Of a DNA stretch of 64,000 bases, positions 7,469 to 41,002 are shown piece after piece. Location of the stretch: sequence record PQ511146.1. One strand, written 5' to 3'. The stretch comes from Escherichia phage NHEP1. The translations under genes and the position numbers were made by a program. Within the stretch, counting starts at the first letter, position 1, and each line of letters opens with the position of its first letter. The notes under the pieces are model-generated. The model was not told the origin of the DNA, made no database searches, and saw only the letters and a program-made list of their open reading frames with translations.

Positions 7469-8518
7469 ATGAATTTAACACCTCGCAGCACCATGGTACA
7501 CGGCATGAAAGAAAAACAGAACGGCTTCGAACCGATGAGTAATAAAATGTTTGGTATGCCTGGTGGTATTATGGAAACATACAGCTACCCAACGCCAGTT
7601 GTTGACCACGTGCTTTATATTGACGATCTTGAGGATTTGCAGGATCATATGTCCCGTTTGCAAACAATTCGTATGGCACAGCCGGAAGAAAGTATCCGTG
7701 TAATTGTTAACAGCCCTGGTGGTTGCGTCCACATTGCCATGGCGTATTTGCAGGCATTCCGCGAGTCTCAGGCAAGCGTTGTTGTACACGCTGAAGGGAT
7801 GTGCTGCTCAGCAGGAACAATCTTATGGCTGGGTTGCAAAGAACGAACTGTGGCTCCGGACACAGAGTTTATGTTCCACTACTATCAAGGTGGCACCTAT
7901 GGCAACGGTGTGAACATGAATACTCAGGTCAACTACTGGAAGAAACGTTTTGAACGCCTGATCGAAAAATACTACGGTGGGGTTCTGACAGAAGATGAGA
8001 TCGCATCCATCACGGCTGGTGGAGAAGTGTGGTTGGATGGAGAAGAGCTGGCAGCTCGAACTGGTGCTATCATTCTGGACGATGAAAACATTCAGCGCAT
8101 TCAGAATGGGCAGAAACCGAAAAAGCTTTTGGCAAAAAGTGATGAAGAAGGTGTGCTAGGCGAAGCAGGCCTGCCAGAGATTCACCAATGCACATCTCTG
8201 GACGAGCTGGTTCACGCTGTTGAGTCTGCAAAAGCAAATGGTATGAAAGGTGATGTTCACACTGTGTTCCTGAATCTGCAGATGGAGAGTGGTGAGACCG
8301 TTAAGATTGCACTGGGTGAGATTACCTCGGAAGATCTGCAGCGATTCTCTGTGGTAGAGCTTCAGGACATTTTGTCCCAATTGAAAACCACCCTGAACGG
8401 AGGTGAAGAAGTTCAGGTTAAAGATAAGACCCGCAAGCGTCTGGTGGACAATATTATTAAAACAGCAAAAGAGCTCAATGAAAAAATCCTGGGCGCAGGA
8501 ATTATCGAAGAAGCTTAA
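7469..8518 (+). CDS. ClpP-family serine peptidase-like protein with C-terminal extension
   Basis: VNSPGG motif, candidate Ser in MCCSAG and His in MFHYYQGG spaced as in ClpP. Confidence 0.65.
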   Translation: MNLTPRSTMVHGMKEKQNGFEPMSNKMFGMPGGIMETYSYPTPVVDHVLYIDDLEDLQDHMSRLQTIRMAQPEESIRVIVNSPGGCVHIAMAYLQAFRESQASVVVHAEGMCCSAGTILWLGCKERTVAPDTEFMFHYYQGGTYGNGVNMNTQVNYWKKRFERLIEKYYGGVLTEDEIASITAGGEVWLDGEELAARTGAIILDDENIQRIQNGQKPKKLLAKSDEEGVLGEAGLPEIHQCTSLDELVHAVESAKANGMKGDVHTVFLNLQMESGETVKIALGEITSEDLQRFSVVELQDILSQLKTTLNGGEEVQVKDKTRKRLVDNIIKTAKELNEKILGAGIIEEA

Positions 8519-10093: not shown

Positions 10094-10327
10094 ATGAAAG
10101 TTAAATTTCTTACAGATTTAGGGTACCCTTCCTTGGTTGACTGCGTTGGTAAAATTGTGGAAGCAAAACGGCTATCTGCAAACGATAATGTTGTCATGGT
10201 TAAGGGAAAAGATTTACTAGCTGCAGGTGCAGAGTCTGGCAGGATCTCTCCTGACTATACGTATTACCTGTCTTTAAGTAATCTACCAGAACGAGGCGGC
10301 AAAGGCCTTGAAGTTGTGGAGGAGTGA
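10094..10327 (+). CDS. Small acidic protein, paralog family A (MKVK...KG.DL.AAGA...VVEE)
   Basis: Shares N-terminal MKVK, KGxDLxAAGA core and acidic C-terminus with 13749, 13966, 15838, 16106 ORFs. Confidence 0.55.
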   Translation: MKVKFLTDLGYPSLVDCVGKIVEAKRLSANDNVVMVKGKDLLAAGAESGRISPDYTYYLSLSNLPERGGKGLEVVEE

Positions 10328-10887: not shown

Positions 10888-11124
10888 ATGAGTATAGATG
10901 CTGTGCTGATAGGTTACCTGGTAGTAGCTGTTATAACAGCAGTAATCTTGGCAGGTATATGCATCGTGTCTACACGAAGGGTGAAGTTTGATGATTTTAT
11001 CACCATCATCACTGCTGCGCCCTTTTGGCCTGTTGTTATCTTCATCGTAATAATGTGCCTAGTTGATTACCACAAGAATACCCGTAAGGAGAAAAAGGAG
11101 AGTAGGGATGGATACCGCACCTAA
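10888..11124 (+). CDS. Small membrane protein
   Basis: Hydrophobic N-terminal segments; RBS AAGGAGGAG. Confidence 0.5.
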   Translation: MSIDAVLIGYLVVAVITAVILAGICIVSTRRVKFDDFITIITAAPFWPVVIFIVIMCLVDYHKNTRKEKKESRDGYRT

Positions 11125-11239
11125 AACTGTTTATACTGTTCTTAAAGAGATTGCGTTCTACGCAGATCTTAGCCGGGCACCTTTATGGGAAAAGAATATG
11201 TATTTAAAATGGTGCGTGAAATTAGAGGGGGCCTTCTAA
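11108..11239 (+). CDS. Small ORF (43 aa)
   Basis: AAGGAGAG RBS 7 nt upstream; TAATG overlap with next small ORF. Confidence 0.3.
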   Translation: MDTAPKTVYTVLKEIAFYADLSRAPLWEKNMYLKWCVKLEGAF

Positions 11240-11358
11240 TGTTTCAAGCCATGTTTATTGAAATGCTCTCTGGGGTATTACTGCTGGTAGCCATTTTGGG
11301 TGGCGCGGCACTGATGTATAATTATCTTGAAAAAGGAGACAGTAATGACAAAAAATAA
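11239..11358 (+). CDS. Hydrophobic micro-protein (39 aa)
   Basis: MFQAMFIEMLSGVLLLVAILGGAALMYNYLEKGDSNDKK; overlaps next gene by 14 nt; junction sequence repeated at 18635-18659. Confidence 0.35.
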   Translation: MFQAMFIEMLSGVLLLVAILGGAALMYNYLEKGDSNDKK

Positions 11359-11530
11359 ATCCTTAGAACAGGCTGAAAACCTTCTCCACGAGCTGGTAAA
11401 GGAGTGGAAAGTTGAATACTCAGATTTTAATGCAAGAGAGGGGGAAGATTATTGGCCTACGGAGCGCTCAGAGGGAGAGTGGTATCAAGATTTCATAGAA
11501 TGGCTATATCAGACGTGCGATGAGGGGTGA
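11345..11530 (+). CDS. Hypothetical protein
   Basis: ATG 11345 with AAAGGAG RBS; track start 11327 is TTG. Confidence 0.45.
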   Translation: MTKNKSLEQAENLLHELVKEWKVEYSDFNAREGEDYWPTERSEGEWYQDFIEWLYQTCDEG

Positions 11531-11988
11531 CGATGTTTGTTAAATATGTAAAAACGTGCCTCAACAACCTTGGTAGAGAGCATTGGTACACACTGCTTGA
11601 AAAAGGAGAAATTTTAACAAAATCTGGAAAGATAACTTTGATACCTTTGGACGATAAAGACCCGTCACTACTTGTCATAGATGATTACGTTACAGGTGTG
11701 TCGTACGAGGTATCTGTGGAGAGGTTAATACGCAGATCTGGAGGTCCTTATGACCGAAGAGAGTATGTTTTCGATTCCGTTACAGAGAAGGAAGATCCGT
11801 CCCTGATGTTTAGGATGGTAATCAGGGATATGAAATCATCTATAAATAGGATCGTAAAGGACATTAAGGAGCCTTTTAGGGTAAAAGTTAAGAAGTTTTT
11901 TGATTCTAAGATCAACATACTCGCCGTTGTGCTGGGCGTAATTCAACTTCTGTTAATTTTGCACTATTTTGAACTGTTGTTTAAGTAA
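11527..11988 (+). CDS. Hypothetical protein with C-terminal hydrophobic segment
   Basis: Track ORF 153 aa. Confidence 0.5.
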   Translation: MTMFVKYVKTCLNNLGREHWYTLLEKGEILTKSGKITLIPLDDKDPSLLVIDDYVTGVSYEVSVERLIRRSGGPYDRREYVFDSVTEKEDPSLMFRMVIRDMKSSINRIVKDIKEPFRVKVKKFFDSKINILAVVLGVIQLLLILHYFELLFK

Positions 11989-12048
11989 TGTGCATTATGG
12001 CACAAAGGATGTGCCATAATTAAATAAACTAAGAAAGAGGTAGAGAGA

Positions 12049-12396
12049 ATGTCAAAGATTAAATCGATATTAATGTGGGTGTCTGTTGTAGCTTTTGTAG
12101 GATACTGGACTTGGGAAACTGAATTAAAAGATATTGGGTATACCAGCCTTGAGAGTAAGGCGTGCATTGGCATAACCGATGCATTCAGGCAGAATGCTAT
12201 GGATCACGAATGTGTCGATGCAGATATAGATGAGAAACTGTCTAAGGACAAAGATTTTTACCATGGTCATGCCTTGCTTGATAGTGGTGACACTGTAGAA
12301 TTCTGGTCGTGGTTCCGTGAAGATGGGACAATAAAGACAGCAGTAAAGATTTCCAACAAAGAGTTGATGCTGTTGCAGCAGAAGGAGGTGCAATGA
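12049..12396 (+). CDS. Hypothetical protein with N-terminal signal/TM segment
   Basis: Track ORF 115 aa; AAAGAGG RBS. Confidence 0.5.
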   Translation: MSKIKSILMWVSVVAFVGYWTWETELKDIGYTSLESKACIGITDAFRQNAMDHECVDADIDEKLSKDKDFYHGHALLDSGDTVEFWSWFREDGTIKTAVKISNKELMLLQQKEVQ

Positions 12397-12680
12397 TCTG
12401 GATATCCTACGCTGATGGCACCATGCTGTATACTGCAGGTACTAGATATGAAGTTAAGGAGGACGATAAAAAATTTATCGTAAAAACATTTGACAAGGAC
12501 GACAACCTTTTGCTAGAATTGACTTACAAGGTTGGGGATGTATCTAGCATCCAATTGGATTGCGGTCATAAAGATAACCCGCTCAAGAAACCTGGGGTAG
12601 GTAAAGCTTCAGAAGAACGCCTGTCTCGTATTGCAGAAAGCGTTTCTGCACAAAAATCTAAAAAGGGGACTAGAAAATGA
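12393..12680 (+). CDS. Hypothetical protein
   Basis: Track ORF 95 aa. Confidence 0.5.
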   Translation: MIWISYADGTMLYTAGTRYEVKEDDKKFIVKTFDKDDNLLLELTYKVGDVSSIQLDCGHKDNPLKKPGVGKASEERLSRIAESVSAQKSKKGTRK

Positions 12681-12871
12681 AAAACTTACATTTTAACACT
12701 TATTACTACAACACTTTGAATGATTTGTATTATATTGTTCGAAGTAAAAATCCTGAAACAGTCCTATTCTGCCGCGAACCTTTCAAAGGAGAGGAAGTGG
12801 AGTCTGAGATGAATGTTAGCCAGATTACCTCTTTGTTGCTCTCAGGTGCAATGGAAGAAGCAATATTCTAA
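12677..12871 (+). CDS. Hypothetical protein
   Basis: Track ORF 64 aa. Confidence 0.4.
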   Translation: MKNLHFNTYYYNTLNDLYYIVRSKNPETVLFCREPFKGEEVESEMNVSQITSLLLSGAMEEAIF

Positions 12872-12889
12872 ACCAGGCGGGAGGGTTTT

Positions 12890-13075
12890 ATGAAGCACTA
12901 TTGTCTGTCTGGTAGGATGGGGGTGGATTGTGATTGGGTTTTCTTAAAACTTGTCAGCGTTCGAGAGTCCATTCCAGAGGAAGAGCAAGAAAGTGAGCTG
13001 ATGTCATGGATCAACTATTACGGCAACACTTTCCGGTATGTCAAAATGGAAGAGCTGCCAAACGAGGATGATTGA
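12890..13075 (+). CDS. Hypothetical protein
   Basis: Track ORF 61 aa. Confidence 0.4.
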   Translation: MKHYCLSGRMGVDCDWVFLKLVSVRESIPEEEQESELMSWINYYGNTFRYVKMEELPNEDD

Positions 13076-13170
13076 TTATGGTAGCATCAATATTAACGTT
13101 TATGGGTGGCGTGGCATTCGGATTCATTCTTTGTCTGTTTATAGTTATTATGGCTATGCGAGGCTGAATT

Positions 13171-13455
13171 ATGAAACTGTTCGAGTGGTTTAAAAAGTTT
13201 AAATACCAGGCTGTTGCTGTATCGAAATGGACCGTCCGCTGGGTGGACGATGATGGAACACAAATTCCTGGTGATCAGGATACCGGATACTGGGTTATGA
13301 TGGAGAACGGATTTGGGAAAAGGAAGTTTAAATGTGCTGGCGCTCCTACTCTTTTAAATGTTAGGAATGTACCAGGGTACAGCACTATGGTTGTTTGGGA
13401 GCTATCCGGTGTTCCTCCTGCCAATGTGCAATATCTGCCAAACCCAGAAAAATAA
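13171..13455 (+). CDS. Hypothetical protein
   Basis: Track ORF 94 aa. Confidence 0.5.
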   Translation: MKLFEWFKKFKYQAVAVSKWTVRWVDDDGTQIPGDQDTGYWVMMENGFGKRKFKCAGAPTLLNVRNVPGYSTMVVWELSGVPPANVQYLPNPEK

Positions 13456-13467
13456 AAGGAGAAGATA

Positions 13468-13752
13468 ATGAGCAATGGTGTCAGCAACAGTGCTGCAGAG
13501 TTTAAAGTGATCTGTAAAGGAACTTATTGGATAGTGAAACAGAAGGTGTACCTATTCGGTTTCATACCGTTTTGGCAGAGATTTTGCTGGGGAGCTAACG
13601 AGCTTAAGAGATACGCCACCAAGGCTATGGCACTTATTGGTATAGCTGAATACATTGCTGCCAGGGACAGAGAGGGGAAAACTTGTTACTACACTGCTGA
13701 CGAGATTCGTAACAGTGTTTACGTTCCACAACCGCCTGAGGGAGACCGTTGA
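13468..13752 (+). CDS. Hypothetical protein
   Basis: Track ORF 94 aa with AAGGAG RBS. Confidence 0.5.
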   Translation: MSNGVSNSAAEFKVICKGTYWIVKQKVYLFGFIPFWQRFCWGANELKRYATKAMALIGIAEYIAARDREGKTCYYTADEIRNSVYVPQPPEGDR

Positions 13753-13976
13753 TGAAAGTTAAAGTTTTAGATTCAAGCTTCTATATTGGTCAGGAGCCCT
13801 TAGTGGGGAAAGTGTTTACCGCTATCCCTAACGAAGATTATCCTGACCTTTTAAAAATAAAAGGTGCAGATCTTATTGCCGCTGGTGCATCCCAGGAATG
13901 CTTTGACAGTCAGTGGACCTACAACTTTGCCCTAGGAGAGGATGTGGAGATAGTGGAGGACGATCATGAAGGTTAA
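13749..13976 (+). CDS. Small acidic protein, paralog family A
   Basis: MMKVKVLDSSFYIGQ...IKGADLIAAGA motif. Confidence 0.55.
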   Translation: MMKVKVLDSSFYIGQEPLVGKVFTAIPNEDYPDLLKIKGADLIAAGASQECFDSQWTYNFALGEDVEIVEDDHEG

Positions 13977-14220
13977 AATTCTTGACTCTAACGTCTACTT
14001 GGGACAATCCTTCCTGAAAGGAAAGGTCGTACCTGCTGTATACTTCGAAGGGTTGCCGTGGGACGATCCTGTGCGGCAAAATCACAGCCATGTAGGCCAC
14101 AATGTGGTGTTCATCTTGGGATCAGACCTGATCGCGGCTGGTGCCCCGGAATATTATTTCGGAGAGGACTTGTATTATGCCTTTGGGGCAGGGTCAGATG
14201 CGGATATTTTAGAGCTGTGA
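13966..14220 (+). CDS. Small acidic protein, paralog family A
   Basis: MKVKILDSNVYLGQ...GSDLIAAGA motif; tandem to 13749. Confidence 0.55.
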   Translation: MKVKILDSNVYLGQSFLKGKVVPAVYFEGLPWDDPVRQNHSHVGHNVVFILGSDLIAAGAPEYYFGEDLYYAFGAGSDADILEL

Positions 14221-14232
14221 TGGGGAACTATT

Positions 14233-14631
14233 GTGAAAAATAAACTGTTCAAAGTTACAATGAAAATTCGCGGAGCTTGGAGCGTAAAGCAAGGGCGTAT
14301 CCCCGAATTTGAGAAAGACTTCTACGTAGTCTCCACCTCGGAGGAGGCTGCATGCTGGCAGGCTGGCTATGCCTATGCAAGAACCTGGTACGAAGGATAC
14401 CAGACTGGTGGCTATGACGGAGAAATTATCAGCAAGGGTGTAGAAGAAATTAATGTGTTGACAAGTGAAAAAGTTTTTGTTATAGTGCATCCAGATTCCA
14501 GAGTGAAGCATTACTGGAATGCCAGAACAAAAACTTGGACACCGTTTGCAGATTCTGCTACACCACTTTTAAGCCAGAAAGCTCTTGACTCTGCTCCAAG
14601 CTACGGGGTTGTTGAAGAAAAGCTAAACTGA
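14233..14631 (+). CDS. Hypothetical protein, paralog family B
   Basis: C-terminal half similar to 16438..16833 (HP.S...YYW.....W TP motif). Confidence 0.55.
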   Translation: MKNKLFKVTMKIRGAWSVKQGRIPEFEKDFYVVSTSEEAACWQAGYAYARTWYEGYQTGGYDGEIISKGVEEINVLTSEKVFVIVHPDSRVKHYWNARTKTWTPFADSATPLLSQKALDSAPSYGVVEEKLN

Positions 14632-14648
14632 AACAGTGAGGTACCAAC

Positions 14649-14939
14649 ATGATGGATTTAGTTCTGGACACTGATAACACCGGAGCGTTTAAAAAGGATG
14701 GTGCAATAAGCATTGACCAATTCTTCCCTGCCAAGATTGACTCAAAATGGACCTACAAGTTTGACGGTGAGATCTTCGCAAATGATGAGAAGGTCGTGGA
14801 TGCTGTAGCCATTTTAAACGCTTTAGGGTATGACCCTGTGAACTCATTGATCAAGGATCCTGTTGAGTTTGCAGAGTATGTTCGTAAAATGGCAGATCTT
14901 GCAGTAGATATTTTAAAAACTATCGACAACAAGTTGTAA
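14649..14939 (+). CDS. Hypothetical protein
   Basis: Track ORF 96 aa. Confidence 0.5.
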   Translation: MMDLVLDTDNTGAFKKDGAISIDQFFPAKIDSKWTYKFDGEIFANDEKVVDAVAILNALGYDPVNSLIKDPVEFAEYVRKMADLAVDILKTIDNKL

Positions 14940-14945
14940 AAACTG

Positions 14946-15001
14946 TTGACACAACGCTTCAGATTTAGTATCATTGTTTTCAAAGAGGGTTGGTTCCCTC
15001 T
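14946..15001 (+). promoter_or_regulatory. Sigma70-like promoter (TTGACA-N17-TATCAT) followed by 5'UTR stem-loop AGAGGG/CCCTCT
   Basis: Hexamers at 14946-14951 and 14969-14974; hairpin 14984-15001; precedes HPF-like gene. Confidence 0.5.
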
Positions 15002-15020
15002 TCTTTAAAAGGAACACATT

Positions 15021-15338
15021 ATGCAAATTGAAATCACTGGCAACGTAGAGATCACTGAAGGTATGGTGTCTTTCATTTCCAACAAAATGTCCAAGCTGGA
15101 GCGTTTGCACCCCTCTGCCAACTATGCACGTGTGAGTGTAAAAGTTGAAAATGATCACCAGGAAGTTATGGCTTTCATTTTTGACAATTCTGGGAAAGAA
15201 GTTATCGCCAAAGCTAAAGGCAGCGATGCTTACGAGGCAACTGACCGTATGGTGGATGTTGCAGCACGCCAGTTGGCTAAATGCGGTGGAAAGAAAGGTA
15301 AGGGAAAAGGTAAAGTAAAGATTGACTTTTTAGATTGA
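15021..15338 (+). CDS. Ribosome hibernation promoting factor / RaiA (S30Ae family) homolog
   Basis: MQIEITGNVEITEG...KLERL...VKVE...ARQLAK pattern matches bacterial HPF/YfiA; Lys/Gly-rich tail. Confidence 0.8.
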   Translation: MQIEITGNVEITEGMVSFISNKMSKLERLHPSANYARVSVKVENDHQEVMAFIFDNSGKEVIAKAKGSDAYEATDRMVDVAARQLAKCGGKKGKGKGKVKIDFLD

Positions 15339-15475
15339 GGTGCTACAATGGGCATGATTAAGAAATTAGTCCCAAATGTAGAGATTGCATGCTTTGAAAT
15401 TATGTTTGCAATCGCAGTTGTAGTTAATGTGTTAGGTTACGGCTATTAATATCAAATAATTGAGGAGACCTCTAA

Positions 15476-15745
15476 ATGAAAATTAAATTATTCCAAACTG
15501 AGCTGGCAGACAAAAACTGTGGACTGGTTGAAGGCATGATCGTTGAAGCACAACCAGTTGACTACATGAAGGTGGTTCGTGATGCCCTGGGTGAAGGTTT
15601 TGATCTGATGGAGCCAGCTCTGCGAGAAGATGTCATCGAGATGGCTAAAAAGCACACACCGGAAGGTTTGGTAGTGTTTGTTGCACCAGGTAACGGGGAA
15701 GAGTTGATTGTAACTCCGGATGTGTATGAGGTTGTAGAAGAGTAA
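15476..15745 (+). CDS. Small acidic protein (C-terminal YEVVEE), paralog subfamily
   Basis: MKIKLF start and C-terminal VYEVVEE shared with 16913 ORF. Confidence 0.5.
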   Translation: MKIKLFQTELADKNCGLVEGMIVEAQPVDYMKVVRDALGEGFDLMEPALREDVIEMAKKHTPEGLVVFVAPGNGEELIVTPDVYEVVEE

Positions 15746-15837
15746 TCCTGCTTGGGTTAGCATACTTTCCTCTACAAGAAAGGTTTGTAATTATTTGTGG
15801 GAAAGGAATCCCCATCTCTTACCAGAGGTGATACTAT

Positions 15838-16101
15838 ATGATTGTTTATTTTAAAACTTCAGGTGGATACCCTGATTCTCAAAGCTTGATTGGAAAAACG
15901 TGCACAGCATACTCACCTCTTGATGAGGAGGTAAGCAATATCCTACGAGATATGTATCGGATTGATCCCCAAGAAGCTTTTGATCAAAACCTTGTATTTG
16001 TCAAGGGATCAGACATAAAGTCTTTGGGGGCATTCCCTGAAGCAGATGATGATGCTGTTTATTCGTTTATGACACCTTTTGAAGCTATGATTGTGGGGTG
16101 A
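15838..16101 (+). CDS. Small acidic protein, paralog family A-like
   Basis: VFVKGSDIKSLGA core motif. Confidence 0.5.
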   Translation: MIVYFKTSGGYPDSQSLIGKTCTAYSPLDEEVSNILRDMYRIDPQEAFDQNLVFVKGSDIKSLGAFPEADDDAVYSFMTPFEAMIVG

Positions 16102-16105
16102 GAAT

Positions 16106-16438
16106 ATGAAAGTACGCTTTATTGGTGAAACAATTCCTGTGCATCTCCGGTCTCCTGAAGACTCTGCAGATCTTGCATCTCAAAAGGCGAGAGGGTATGA
16201 TAAGAAAGTGATCTCAAGCAATGTAGAGCTTGAGGCCACCAGTCTACCTGACCCAGCTGCATTCTTCAATCATTATGGCTACTATTTTAGCAATCTGATG
16301 AATATTGGTGAGCTTGTGTTTATTAGTGGTGGAGAGATAGTTAGCAAGCTTGGTGGAGATCCGGATATCTTTCATGAAACCTGCCCTTTTGCATTTGTGG
16401 TGGGTTCAGATGTGGAAGTTATTGAGGAGGTTCGGTAA
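16106..16438 (+). CDS. Small acidic protein, paralog family A-like
   Basis: ATG 16106 (MKVRF) after GGGGTGAG; C-terminal VEVIEEVR. Confidence 0.5.
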   Translation: MKVRFIGETIPVHLRSPEDSADLASQKARGYDKKVISSNVELEATSLPDPAAFFNHYGYYFSNLMNIGELVFISGGEIVSKLGGDPDIFHETCPFAFVVGSDVEVIEEVR

Positions 16439-16833
16439 TGGTAAGTCTATACCGTGTTGAGTATAGCTCGGATACTGTATACAATGTAAGAAGCAAAGAT
16501 CGCAGTGACAGAGTGCAAGAAATGTATGTTCTTGCAGACAGTCCGTTATCTGCAGCGTTCAAGGCAGGAGCTCTTGCATCTCGTTGGAAATTTGAGGGTG
16601 GATCTTTCTATGAAGAAACCCTTGAAGATTCTGTTGTTATTTCTTCTGTAGAGGTTTCAACCGACTACGAAGGGAAAAAGTTCGTAATGCGGCACCCACA
16701 CAGCAACATTGCGTACTACTGGGATGTTCTGAACAATGAGTGGACCCCTGATCTTCAGAAGGCCACTGTTCTAACCCCATTCCTGGCAGATAAGTTTCCA
16801 CCAGAAGGTAATTTATCTGCACTGTTTCAGTAA
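16438..16833 (+). CDS. Hypothetical protein, paralog family B
   Basis: Similar to 14233..14631 over C-terminal half. Confidence 0.55.
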   Translation: MVSLYRVEYSSDTVYNVRSKDRSDRVQEMYVLADSPLSAAFKAGALASRWKFEGGSFYEETLEDSVVISSVEVSTDYEGKKFVMRHPHSNIAYYWDVLNNEWTPDLQKATVLTPFLADKFPPEGNLSALFQ

Positions 16834-16842
16834 TTTTATGCC

Positions 16843-16880
16843 ACACAGGTGTTGACAACACCAACCCTGTGTGCAATAAT
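16843..16880 (+). promoter_or_regulatory. Promoter TTGACA-N17-AATAAT embedded in a 12-bp-arm palindrome
   Basis: CACACAGGTGTTG...CAACCCTGTGTG inverted repeat overlapping the -35. Confidence 0.4.
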
Positions 16881-16912
16881 ACCTTCATCTTAACAAGATA
16901 GGAGACCGATTG

Positions 16913-17170
16913 ATGAAGATTAAATTGAAAAACCTTGAAACGGCAGAGATTCAGGAAGGTATTGATTTCCGTTCTAAAGATGGAGACATCCTGGAGGCGA
17001 ATGTCCCGACATATAAGTTGATTAAAGGTTTTGGCAACGTTCCGGAGGAGGATATTACAGACATTCTTATGATGTTGATCCTTGACGGGACTGTGTTTGT
17101 AGGTGAAGGTGAGAACGCTATTGCAATCCCGAGCCATTTTTATGAAGTAGTTGACGAAGAGGTGCTGTAA
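16913..17170 (+). CDS. Small acidic protein (C-terminal YEVVDEEVL)
   Basis: ATG 16913 after AGGAG RBS. Confidence 0.5.
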   Translation: MKIKLKNLETAEIQEGIDFRSKDGDILEANVPTYKLIKGFGNVPEEDITDILMMLILDGTVFVGEGENAIAIPSHFYEVVDEEVL

Positions 17171-17521
17171 ATGAAAGTAGAGATCACAGGTTTTGATATG
17201 AATGCGGTTCCGGAAGATATTTTAGCTAAACTCCCGGAAGGTTTTGGTAACGGTGTTGTGGTTGATGCTGTTCCTCCTACCAAAGACATCCTGCTGCAGT
17301 ATGGTGTGGCAGAGGAAGATGTTGATAAAGTTCTTACAATGATGGCAATCGACCGTGTTGTCGTTGTTAAAGGTCTTGAAGGTTTTGATAACGATCCTCT
17401 GATTATTCGTGGTGATGACTATCATGTCATCGACAACGAAGGCCAAGAGTTCTACGAACCTTCTGCTGAAGATGTTCTTAACTTACTACTGGAAGCAGGC
17501 ACCGAAGAGGAGGAAGAATAA
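17171..17521 (+). CDS. Small acidic protein with poly-Glu C-terminus
   Basis: Track ORF 116 aa ending EEEEE. Confidence 0.5.
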   Translation: MKVEITGFDMNAVPEDILAKLPEGFGNGVVVDAVPPTKDILLQYGVAEEDVDKVLTMMAIDRVVVVKGLEGFDNDPLIIRGDDYHVIDNEGQEFYEPSAEDVLNLLLEAGTEEEEE

Positions 17522-17850
17522 TGAAAATTGATCCGTTACTGAAGGCTCGTGCAGAAAAAGCATACACTATCAAGCTGACCTCTCTGGTCCCTACTTGTCA
17601 TCCGGATGTAGGTTGGCCTGAAGGCTTGGTAGAGGGGACTGTAACAGCTGCATACCTTCCTAACATCAAATACCTCATGGAGATCTTGGAGATGGATGAG
17701 GAAACGGCAGAACAGTTCCAGTTAGACATGAAGCAAAGTGGGACTCTGGTTATTCACGGGTGGTATAATACTAAAGATGCAGAAGATCCCCTGGTAACTT
17801 CTAATCTGGCATATGAGATCTTAGGGCCTTTGAACTTGGGGGAAGACTAA
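17521..17850 (+). CDS. Hypothetical protein
   Basis: Track ORF 109 aa, ATGA overlap. Confidence 0.5.
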   Translation: MKIDPLLKARAEKAYTIKLTSLVPTCHPDVGWPEGLVEGTVTAAYLPNIKYLMEILEMDEETAEQFQLDMKQSGTLVIHGWYNTKDAEDPLVTSNLAYEILGPLNLGED

Positions 17851-18137
17851 TGAAAGATTTGGTTAAGATCAAGATTAAAGACACCAATGGAGAACTCAGC
17901 CATTTTGGAATTAACGATGGTGACGAGCTGATCGCCCACCTGCCTACCAAGGAAGTTGTAAGCAAAGCGGTTGCCGGAGAAGAAGATGCAATGCAGGCTG
18001 CAGGTGTGGATGAAAGCTATGTAGCAATGTGTATGTGCCGAGATCAGGTTGTTCTGTATAAAGCGTATCGACCAAATGGAGCACCTGAGTGGCTTGTTTT
18101 CCGACCCGAAGGGTATGAAATTTTAGAGACGCTATGA
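17850..18137 (+). CDS. Hypothetical protein
   Basis: Track ORF 95 aa. Confidence 0.5.
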   Translation: MKDLVKIKIKDTNGELSHFGINDGDELIAHLPTKEVVSKAVAGEEDAMQAAGVDESYVAMCMCRDQVVLYKAYRPNGAPEWLVFRPEGYEILETL

Positions 18138-18226
18138 TAAATCTTGCCAAGGTTGCAACGGCACTGTTAATTATTTGCTGGATAGTGACCTTGGCACTAT
18201 GTCTTGTATTTCATTAAGGGGGCTAT

Positions 18227-18490
18227 ATGAACATCTTGGTGTGGGTTGTAGCAGTAGCGTTTGTTGCGTGCCTCTCTTGTTGGGTTGCTGTGAGGATTTC
18301 TATAGCCACTCTTCGGAAATTAGGGTTCTCAGAGTGGGATATTAATATCCTTTCTTTTCGCAATGAGACAATCTCAGCCGCCCTGCTGTGTAAGAAGTTT
18401 AAGTGGGAACCTTGTGAGGTCATGAACTATCTAAGAACAGGAGATATTCCTGAGAGATTTAAAAAAGTTCTTGACGGCAAAGACAAATGA
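18227..18490 (+). CDS. Small membrane protein
   Basis: Hydrophobic N-terminus ILVWVVAVAFVACLSCWVAV. Confidence 0.5.
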   Translation: MNILVWVVAVAFVACLSCWVAVRISIATLRKLGFSEWDINILSFRNETISAALLCKKFKWEPCEVMNYLRTGDIPERFKKVLDGKDK

Positions 18491-18518
18491 TAGTATAGTG
18501 ACTAACAAGAGGTGAGGA

Positions 18519-18659
18519 ATGACTGATTTTACTGAAGCTTTAATGATGGCCTTATCTGTTTTAGCGCTATCGGTGTGTTTTGGGGCGTTATTCACATCTC
18601 TGGTTAAAGTTTTACATACCATATTCTCACCCAAGGAGCACAGTAATGACGAAGATTGA
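18519..18659 (+). CDS. Hydrophobic micro-protein (46 aa)
   Basis: GAGGTGAGGA RBS; overlaps next gene by 14 nt; C-terminus HSNDED resembles 11239 ORF C-terminus SNDKK. Confidence 0.35.
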   Translation: MTDFTEALMMALSVLALSVCFGALFTSLVKVLHTIFSPKEHSNDED

Positions 18660-18897
18660 CTTAAATGCTGGCGACCATGTTGTTGTCAAATGCATCGGGG
18701 ATTATCTTGGATTCACAATCGGCAATACTTACGAGGCAGTGGTGGCGAAGGTTTATCATGATAAAGTCCTCAGCCTTGTATTTGACTGCGATGATGACGG
18801 AGATGACCGTTACGTCTGTGAGGTGCTGGCACGTGACGATAGTGAAGACCAAAAATTCCTGGTTATTGAACTGAACGGTATTTTTGTAGAACGTTAA
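18646..18897 (+). CDS. Hypothetical protein
   Basis: ATG 18646 with AAGGAG RBS; track start is upstream alternative codon. Confidence 0.5.
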   Translation: MTKIDLNAGDHVVVKCIGDYLGFTIGNTYEAVVAKVYHDKVLSLVFDCDDDGDDRYVCEVLARDDSEDQKFLVIELNGIFVER

Positions 18898-25131: not shown

Positions 25132-25344
25132 TTAAAACCAGGTGCCAACCGTTTCCAATAGGTCACTGACTACCAGAACAACACCGATTAGCACATATTT
25201 AATCAGGAAGGGGATTAGCGCCAGCGCCGCTACTATGATCCCCATTGTCATGATTATTTTTCTCATGGTTAACGGTTCACGTAAGTTTTTTTTTCCCATC
25301 TTCTGATCCTCTGTTAGCATACGATAGCGATCACGCCGCCACAA
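25132..25344 (-). CDS. Small membrane protein
   Basis: Two hydrophobic segments. Confidence 0.45.
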   Translation of the reverse strand: MWRRDRYRMLTEDQKMGKKNLREPLTMRKIIMTMGIIVAALALIPFLIKYVLIGVVLVVSDLLETVGTWF

Positions 25345-31806: not shown

Positions 31807-32044
31807 GGTGTTTTCTCCTTTTGTGTATTCTGGGAAGTTTTCCCGTTTACGTGTTTAAGTATATCAATCTAAGTTAGCTTGTCAATTAAAAATTTAAGAA
31901 AAATTTTGCAAAACTGTTAGCGCTACTCATTAACATTTGCGCCAGGATGTAACCGACAACGCAAACGATAATAGTTACCTTTGTGTATTGGCGTGTAGTG
32001 CTCATCTTAAAGCCCCCTTTTTCGCTTAGTTGAGACTAGTTTAC

Positions 32045-40685: not shown

Positions 40686-41002
40686 GCTTCCTCGTCATCT
40701 AATGGGTTGAAGATTTCACCGAAGTATTCTAAGACTTCCAGCTCACGGGTGGTGCAGAAAACACAGTCCCCGTTGTCATCTTCGATAACGGCCTCTTTAC
40801 CAAGAACATCAACTTCAAATTCGTCGTTTAACAGAACGGAACCTGTGTAAACTTTATCTGCCGTGCAGTCCCGAAAAGCAGAGTCCTTCTCCAAGTAGTC
40901 TGGCTTAACCTTGGCTTTAATTCGTTGATATTGTTTGGTCATTGCTGTGGTCCCCTTTCGTTTTGATAGGGCCATTATATTAGGCCCTATCGCTATTGTC
41001 AA
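40682..41002 (-). CDS. Hypothetical protein (paralog of 41006..41260)
   Basis: Shared AF(R/K)DCT and DD(N/E)GD.V(F/W)CT motifs. Confidence 0.5.
   Translation of the reverse strand: MTIAIGPNIMALSKRKGTTAMTKQYQRIKAKVKPDYLEKDSAFRDCTADKVYTGSVLLNDEFEVDVLGKEAVIEDDNGDCVFCTTRELEVLEYFGEIFNPLDDEEA

Follow-up and report, generated by a model that had tools for sequence, protein, structure and literature searches.

Small single-pass membrane proteins are familiar from virulent coliphages, T4 Imm, Sp and RI being examples, as are small phage families rich in transmembrane (TM) segments. In phage rV5, the region considered here was described as containing "88 mainly small ORFs" (open reading frames), most of them tightly packed or overlapping, with a GGAGGT-like ribosome-binding site (RBS) before each (PMC3606486). 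Table S3 of that paper (Kropinski et al. 2013, PMC3606486) labels ORF131 (39 amino acids, aa), ORF145 (33 aa) and ORF156 (46 aa) as 'membrane protein, 1 TMD' (one transmembrane domain), and lists four further one-TMD peptides of 39–46 aa on the opposite strand (ORF170, 173, 181 and 193). For overlapping genes in general, translational coupling has been found to be most efficient at spacings of -4 to +3 and to fall as the overlap grows beyond -4 (PMC12548453). Here we analyzed a 64,000-nucleotide (nt) stretch of Escherichia phage NHEP1 (record PQ511146.1; hereafter the window, to which all positions refer), in which two hydrophobic micro-ORFs (11239–11358 and 18519–18659) each run into the start of the next gene, and which a preliminary description had interpreted as two copies of a duplicated junction module. 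We conclude, with a probability of about 0.8, that these loci are two independent and non-homologous pairs of small accessory genes, each comprising a TM micro-protein and an acidic soluble protein, whose junctions resemble one another as RBSs and not through duplication. The genes were already known, three of the micro-proteins having been labeled 'membrane protein, 1 TMD' in 2013, and the inference of duplication is wrong.

Two overlapping gene pairs in a dense block of small genes

The window derives from a Vequintavirus, an rV5/FV3-like E. coli myovirus. Across the region of about 8 kb that spans both loci, it shares 98.6% nucleotide identity with Escherichia phage vB_EcoM-ECP26, about 95% with FV3 and about 91.6% with rV5-type phages, and 120 records of the genus Vequintavirus match this region. 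The small genes here form a dense block, all on the + strand, in which 14 of 38 junctions overlap (-1 and -4 at five junctions each, -14 at two, and -11 and -17 at one each); overlaps are routine in the block. Both pairs are annotated as hypothetical coding sequences in FV3, rV5 and AlexBoehm.

Relatives were compared using an alignment of 12 genomes, consisting of the window and 11 relatives at 91–95% nucleotide identity. Five of these make up an FV3-like subset (the window, FV3, SYGMH1, WM and EI-SP-GF), and seven carry an rV5-type junction A (rV5, AlexBoehm, EPFV3, BP9, D1, naam and PMBT16). Nine of the relatives are annotated and were checked for gene calls, while two further records carry no annotation. 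A search of 5.8 billion proteins added one further, divergent sister lineage, found on contigs of about 137 kb, with 60% identity for the protein of downstream gene B and 75–83% for that of downstream gene A. The two modules are made up as follows.

11239–11358, + strand: micro-ORF A, 39 aa with a single hydrophobic segment, orthologue of rV5 gp126 (ORF131), phrog_15251
11333–11349, + strand: junction A, with the Shine-Dalgarno (SD) sequence AAGGAG at 11333–11338, spacer ACAGTA and ATG at 11345
11345–11530, + strand: downstream gene A, encoding a 61-aa acidic protein, rV5 gp127 (ORF132), phrog_8789
18519–18659, + strand: micro-ORF B, 46 aa with a single hydrophobic segment, orthologue of rV5 gp151 (ORF156), phrog_16755
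18633–18650, + strand: junction B, with SD AAGGAG at 18633–18638, spacer CACAGTA and ATG at 18646
18646–18897, + strand: downstream gene B, encoding an 83-aa acidic protein, rV5 gp152 (ORF157), phrog_12851

The ORF coordinates and out-of-frame overlaps given in the preliminary description were correct at both loci: the two genes of a pair share 14 nt, the second being read in the +1 frame. Junction A reads AAGGAG-ACAGTAATGAC-AA (11333–11351) and lies entirely within the tail codons of micro-ORF A (K-G-D-S-N-D), and junction B reads AAGGAGCACAGTAATGACGAA (18633–18653) and lies within those of micro-ORF B (K-E-H-S-N-D). The hydrophobic peptides with SND tails (...GDSNDKK and ...EHSNDED) and the downstream MTK starts that had been pointed out are likewise present at both loci. 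However, SND and MT are the same 11-mer, ACAGTAATGAC, read in two frames, and so are not independent observations. The ATG of micro-ORF A overlaps the stop codon of the preceding ORF as TAATG, and is replaced by GTG in rV5-type genomes. Three genomes begin micro-ORF B with GTG and SYGMH1 has AGG in its place, so that the real start may be M9 or M10.

Likeness of the two junctions

The exact 11-mer is found at 11339 and 18640, standing one base further from AAGGAG at the second locus. A DNA alignment of the two loci showed that their likeness is confined to the stretch from the SD to the ATG, where, allowing one gap, the junctions agree at 17 of 18 positions. We compared this with a null set drawn from the gene set of the whole window, comprising the -20 to +15 contexts of 107 SD-preceded starts (5,671 pairs). 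Eight pairs share a longer exact run in register, including the start codon (12–18 nt versus 11 nt for A and B), and the A/B pair ranked 9th in ungapped and 8th in gapped comparisons. As seven of the eight better-ranked pairs join proteins without BLASTP similarity at E <1, these matches reflect the uniform make-up of start sites in this phage (SD, A-rich spacer, ATG, A-rich second codon), rather than paralogy. Exact repeats of 11–14 nt of micro-ORF sequence are also commonplace elsewhere in the 64 kb (BLAST E of about 1). The junction likeness from which a duplicated module had been deduced is therefore essentially no better than chance. More generally, strong SD-spacer-ATG contexts of unrelated genes in dense phage blocks routinely share 11–18 identical bases.

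Homology tests and deep searches

BLASTP produced no alignment between micro-proteins A and B, and no similarity between downstream proteins A and B (E = 5). When assessed by Smith-Waterman alignment against shuffles, micro-protein A compared with B gave z = 0.2. Among the ten pairwise comparisons of the five hydrophobic micro-peptides in the block (A, B and three others described below), none was clearly above shuffles (best z = 2.1, nominal 0.04, uncorrected). The downstream partners also differ in their predicted folds, being alpha at locus A, where AlphaFold2 indicates a two-helix hairpin (helices 5–31 and 43–60; predicted local distance difference test score, pLDDT, 79), and all-beta at locus B. 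A fold search of the downstream B model against the PDB returned nothing significant, the best match (E 0.19) being a generic resemblance to small beta-barrels (SH3/Tudor-like).

The annotated genes each fall into a separate PHROG that is restricted to Vequintavirus and of unknown function, with full-length matches at E = 1e-26 to 1e-35 for the micro-proteins orthologous to those of rV5, and no Pfam match above threshold was obtained for the proteins. Searching 50,697 phage records by tblastn recovered both partners only from Vequintavirus, at identities of at least 95%. An exhaustive HMMER search of 1.84 billion representatives with micro-protein A yielded two clusters only, its own and that of the divergent orthologue, and all relatives of micro-protein B in the protein database were at least 83% identical to it. 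No distant family of these proteins emerged from these deep protein searches (HMMER, tblastn and the large protein database), and we found nothing in the literature on the expression or function of these genes in Vequintavirinae. The micro-proteins are mutually non-homologous, as are their downstream partners.

Evolution of the junctions across relatives

Among the 12 genomes, ACAGTAATGAC occurs at junction A only in the FV3-like subset, the other four members of which have AAGGGG where the window has AAGGAG. In the seven rV5-type genomes, junction A reads ACAGCAATGG[C/T], the micro-protein tail is SNGKK and the downstream gene starts with MAK or MVK. Junction B reads GCAGTAATGAC (KERSND) in six genomes, which are of the rV5 type. 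Four genomes have an in-register run of 11 nt common to A and B and one has a run of 10 nt; in the remaining seven, rV5 among them, the run is limited to 4 nt (AATG). Intermediate outgroup contigs (L018 and L019) carry the rV5-type junction A, and the FV3-type state is therefore derived by two substitutions. The extra identity in this genome would hence be due to two point changes at locus A in the FV3-like sublineage. As the matching state is derived at locus A, it represents convergence, not a relic of shared ancestry.

Both micro-ORFs and both 14-nt overlaps are retained in the divergent lineage. Its locus A encodes a 40-aa peptide (MLQAVVIEMLSGLLLLLLILGGALFLYKHLEKEDDKNEHQ, 58% identity to micro-ORF A) with a partner beginning MSTNK, and its locus B a 45-aa peptide (MDFIDAVATALTVMALSVTMGAVFTYVVKVMVDLFTPKEGDNGKD, 52% identity to micro-ORF B) with a partner beginning MEKIN. 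The TM cores are kept in these orthologues (IEMLSG..LLL..ILGGA and AL.V.ALSV..GA.FT..VKV), while the tails diverge. The junctions read gaaaaagaggacgacaaaaATGagc and ccaaaagagggtgataATGgaa (that of locus B also being given as AAAGAGGGTGATAATGGAA), with only AATG in common. The -14 architecture is thus conserved, but the junction sequence is not.

These comparisons also bear on whether the two modules could descend from an ancient duplication of a TM micro-protein gene and its partner, after which the coding sequences diverged while a triply constrained junction still betrays the common origin. The shared architecture (TM micro-ORF, SD in its tail, 14-nt overlap into the +1 frame, small acidic partner) is what such a history would leave, as is the match at 17 of 18 junction positions, and genuine tandem duplicates do exist in the block. 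Those duplicates are, however, easily detected (genes 13752/13966, E = 3e-14), whereas the modules have no protein similarity and partners with alpha versus all-beta predictions. Moreover, a relic should be strongest in the ancestral state, yet the junction identity is missing from rV5-type genomes and the divergent lineage and arose secondarily at locus A, and the RBSs of unrelated genes match each other as well or better. On these grounds, a duplicated (paralogous) module as first proposed is not supported, and its ancient version is very improbable.

Translation across the overlaps

If the pairs are independent, their junctions would be alike because both are good E. coli-type RBSs, with a purine-rich SD, an A-rich spacer and an A-rich second codon. 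The downstream RBS (SD AAGGAG, spacer of 6–7 nt, ATG) lies in the last codons of the micro-ORF, which ends 14 nt into the next gene, and the SD may simply happen to sit in a permissive, polar tail of the upstream peptide. Read in frame, such an SD would give tails rich in K, E, G, D, S and N, such as EKGDSND and PKEHSND. The tail codons (GAA AAA GGA GAC, CCC AAG GAG CAC, GAA AAA GAG GAC and CCA AAA GAG GGT) illustrate how all four tails are alike in character without homology, because a purine-rich SD in frame yields K, E, G and D codons. An RBS inside an upstream ORF thereby imposes similar charged peptide tails.

The geometry of both junctions fits that of a coupled pair, in that the genes are co-directional, overlap by 14 nt and have AAGGAG 6–7 nt before the ATG, with the spacing conserved. 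No inhibitory RNA structure was found above shuffles at either junction (91-nt windows; minimum free energy z = +0.40 and +0.73), and the micro-ORF starts, which were folded too, showed no significant structure. Obligate coupling via RNA structure is not supported by these results. The downstream genes may be initiated mainly from their own strong, unstructured SDs, with at most modest coupling to translation of the micro-ORF, and coupling at the -14 junctions is, judging from sequence, probably weak or dispensable.

The shared junction might otherwise be a cis-regulatory element to which a phage translational repressor or small RNA binds, or might direct programmed frameshifting that yields a fusion of the two proteins. 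This could be imagined because both loci carry the exact 11-mer in the same register relative to the start codon, and because micro-ORF A has a run of six A residues (GACAAAAAATAA) immediately before its stop codon. Nonetheless, the 11-mer differs at locus A in 7 of 12 genomes, at locus B in 6 of 12, and at both loci in the divergent lineage. It has no third copy at another start in the window, where the sole match with one mismatch is on the minus strand at 40938. The downstream frame is +1, and AAA-AAA-TAA is not known to be an efficient shift site for it. Fusion through programmed frameshifting is not supported, as the A-run is present only at locus A, is lost from the divergent locus A and has no counterpart at B, and significant RNA structure is lacking. 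A regulatory or frameshifting element at the junctions is accordingly hardly credible.

Another possibility is that the two products of each pair work together as a two-component unit, for example with the TM micro-protein as membrane anchor and the soluble partner as acidic effector, the two units being analogous and not homologous. Such units could act in superinfection exclusion, as an anti-defense or host-takeover complex, or, at locus A, as a regulator of the putative holin gp124, with the overlap serving co-expression. Both pairs are retained with the 14-nt overlap at 52–60% protein identity in the divergent lineage, where two non-overlapping micro-ORFs are missing, and module A is located two genes 3' of the two-TMD 'putative holin'. 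However, the synteny of the whole block is conserved anyway, making co-retention a weak argument; a -14 overlap is expected to couple poorly (PMC12548453), and the partner has a strong unstructured SD of its own. Neither the micro-proteins nor their partners had a Pfam or PHROG match to a holin, antiholin, spanin, or defense or anti-defense family, and the holin label of gp124 (ORF129) derives from its TM count only. Table S3 places the rV5 endolysin (ORF89) at a distance of about 22 kb, and the micro-ORFs are not in the lysis cassette. We consider two-component units quite unlikely.

Several observations nevertheless weigh against two independent pairs with nothing but RBS likeness in common. 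Starts downstream of TM micro-ORFs account for only about 10 of the 5,671 start-context pairs, yet supply one of the top 8, which corresponds to a nominal p of about 0.014 for features chosen post hoc. The all-beta prediction for downstream gene B (five strands, AlphaFold2, pLDDT 63) is of modest confidence. The overlap measures exactly 14 nt at each locus and is kept in all lineages examined, a possible sign of functional constraint beyond packing. Finally, the two overlapping micro-ORFs are retained in divergent lineages and two non-overlapping ones are lost, which fits a functional link between micro-protein and partner.

Coding status of the five micro-ORFs

Three other hydrophobic micro-ORFs are located between the two modules:

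13078–13167, + strand: micro-ORF of 29 aa, hydrophobic, +3 nt to the next gene
15348–15449, + strand: micro-ORF of 33 aa, hydrophobic, orthologue of rV5 gp140 (ORF145), phrog_15151
18134–18217, + strand: micro-ORF of 27 aa, hydrophobic, with an ATGA junction to the upstream gene

All three had been listed in the preliminary description, albeit with coordinates 2 nt off for the second and an end 3 nt off for the third, and they do not overlap the next gene (spacings of +3, +26 and +9, respectively). Hydropathy analysis was consistent with the expected membrane segments, each of the five peptides having one 19-residue segment with a mean Kyte-Doolittle hydropathy of 2.2–2.8. The micro-proteins may thus be single-pass inner-membrane proteins, and possibly host-takeover or accessory factors.

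All five micro-ORFs are intact in 12 of 12 genomes. Pooled over their non-overlapping parts, variable sites numbered 14, 8 and 40 at codon positions 1, 2 and 3, and the ratio of synonymous to nonsynonymous changes was 42:25 in frame versus 13:48 and 7:53 in the other two frames. The individual signal (variable sites at codon positions 1/2/3) is strong for micro-ORF A (3/1/16, with 17 synonymous and 4 nonsynonymous changes), clear for 13078 (4/0/7), and modest for micro-ORF B (1/2/6) and for 18134 (3/4/8, weak taken alone). Micro-ORF 15348 has few variable sites (3/1/3) and is uninformative alone. This pattern of substitution shows that the five micro-ORFs are real protein-coding genes under purifying selection. 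The earlier suggestion of a recurring type of membrane micro-protein gene hence holds insofar as such genes recur, are real and are coding, but they are not one gene family and have no mutual homology.

Two of the three are under-annotated. Only the BASEL phage AlexBoehm and PMBT16 have an annotation for micro-ORF 13078–13167, which is missing from the gene calls of rV5 and FV3, while 18134–18217 is unannotated in all nine annotated relatives examined. The former has no counterpart in contigs L015–L019, in which genes 12890 and 13171 have homologues that lie directly adjacent or overlap by 14 nt, and the latter is missing from the divergent sister lineage, in which its flanking genes adjoin each other. 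Tiny TM genes therefore appear to turn over individually. A search within the window for the origin of these two lineage-specific micro-ORFs found only chance matches of 10–14 nt. There is a weak resemblance between the TM core of the 18134 peptide (LLIICW) and the TM segment in the divergent homologue of g18227, the next gene (z = 2.9, p of about 0.015), which is only suggestive.

A broader scenario would combine obligate two-component pairs, in which the membrane peptide tethers or gates its partner (for exclusion, anti-defense or, at A, the timing of the putative holin), with a lineage that generates new single-pass micro-genes in the gaps between genes. The lineage may keep making such genes: all 12 core genomes have 13078 and 18134, and sister lineages lack them and have abutting flanks. 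We regard this scenario as unlikely.

In addition, micro-ORF 15348 begins 9 nt after the gene of a phage homologue of the ribosome hibernation factor HPF/RaiA (15021–15338, + strand), which is preceded by a sigma70-like promoter at 14946–14974. Further SD-preceded small ORFs with one hydrophobic segment are located at 25132–25299 (- strand, 55 aa) and 31886–32005 (- strand, 39 aa), in the opposite-strand block of small genes to which the four additional one-TMD peptides of rV5 belong.

Neighboring genes and other observations

Two genes lie immediately upstream of micro-ORF A:

10888–11124, + strand: two-TMD protein of 78 aa, rV5 gp124 (ORF129)
11108–11239, + strand: 43-aa ORF directly 5' of micro-ORF A, rV5 gp125 (ORF130), phrog_16157

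The 43-aa ORF overlaps the preceding two-TMD gene by 17 nt. This two-TMD gene heads an overlapping chain (spacings of -17, -1 and -14) that takes in micro-ORF A, and its product has weak PHROG matches to 'membrane protein' moron families. The authors of the rV5 paper called gp124 a 'putative holin' from its TM count and basic C-terminus alone (PMC3606486). On the other side of module A, directly 3' of gene 11533–11988, we observed a perfect 11-bp inverted repeat (ATTATGGCACA-aagga-TGTGCCATAAT; 11990–12020, + strand), which is likely a terminator or processing hairpin closing the module A operon. A simple terminator scan gave no call at this repeat.

Upstream of module B, a sigma70-like site (TTGACG-N17-TATAGT, 10 of 12 consensus matches; 18471–18499, + strand) lies 20 nt 5' of the start of micro-ORF B. 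It could be the module's own promoter, for which the site is only a hint: it is not annotated in rV5, and the promoter scan overall was not above shuffle expectation (29 sites versus 23 ± 4.5). The sigma70-type promoters P144 and P150 of the rV5 record correspond to sites at window positions 14946 and 16852 that match the consensus at 11 of 12 positions.

The block also contains genuine paralogues. One family (MKVK..., with a G.DL(I/L)AAGA-like motif) comprises the genes at 10094–10327, 13752–13976, 13966–14220, 15838–16101 and 16106–16438 (BLASTP E down to 3e-14), and a second pair encodes proteins of about 131 aa (14233–14631 and 16438–16833; E = 3e-8). In rV5, the proteins ORF133 (with a C-terminal TMD), ORF137 and ORF152 were found in virions by mass spectrometry (PMC3606486). 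Their orthologues in the window are encoded at 11533–11988, 12890–13075 and 17521–17850 (+ strand), a setting among accessory small ORFs in which virion proteins would not be expected.

Two observations concern the database records. Eighteen records labeled 'Campylobacter phage' (e.g., D1, MG065646, marked UNVERIFIED) share about 92% identity with the E. coli Vequintavirus studied here, and are probably mislabeled or contaminant E. coli phages. In rV5 (L003), a frameshift at 7703–7973 splits the orthologue of a 95-aa gene (window 17850–18137) into gp148 and gp149. The other 11 genomes have this gene uninterrupted, and the rV5 split reflects either an error in sequencing or a pseudogene particular to that strain.

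Comparison with described systems

The additions made here to what was known are small: the TM micro-genes 13078–13167 and 18134–18217 are conserved yet under-annotated, and sister lineages have gained or lost such genes. The locus matters little as a discovery, and serves rather as a calibration case for sequence-only scanning.

The closest described counterparts are those of rV5 itself. Its gp126, gp140 and gp151 have the same positions, lengths (39, 33 and 46 aa) and TM prediction as their orthologues in NHEP1, at about 85–95% amino acid identity, and gp126 and gp151 overlap gp127 and gp152 by 14 nt as their counterparts do here. The NHEP1 genes differ from these by a small number of substitutions, two of which, at junction A, produce the 11-nt identity with junction B, and micro-ORFs 13078 and 18134 are missing from the rV5 table.

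As in described coupled overlapping pairs (PMC12548453), the genes are co-directional and out of frame, with the SD embedded in the upstream coding sequence. The present block likewise contains many -1 (TAATG) and -4 (ATGA) junctions. The -14 overlap seen here lies outside the best range of -4 to +3, and no inhibitory RNA structure is predicted at these junctions.

Although the micro-proteins have no sequence or profile similarity to any characterized member of the T4 Imm, Sp and RI type of small membrane protein, they share with that type a very short length, one predicted TM helix, a short polar tail, a setting among small genes, fast evolution and a restricted taxonomic range.

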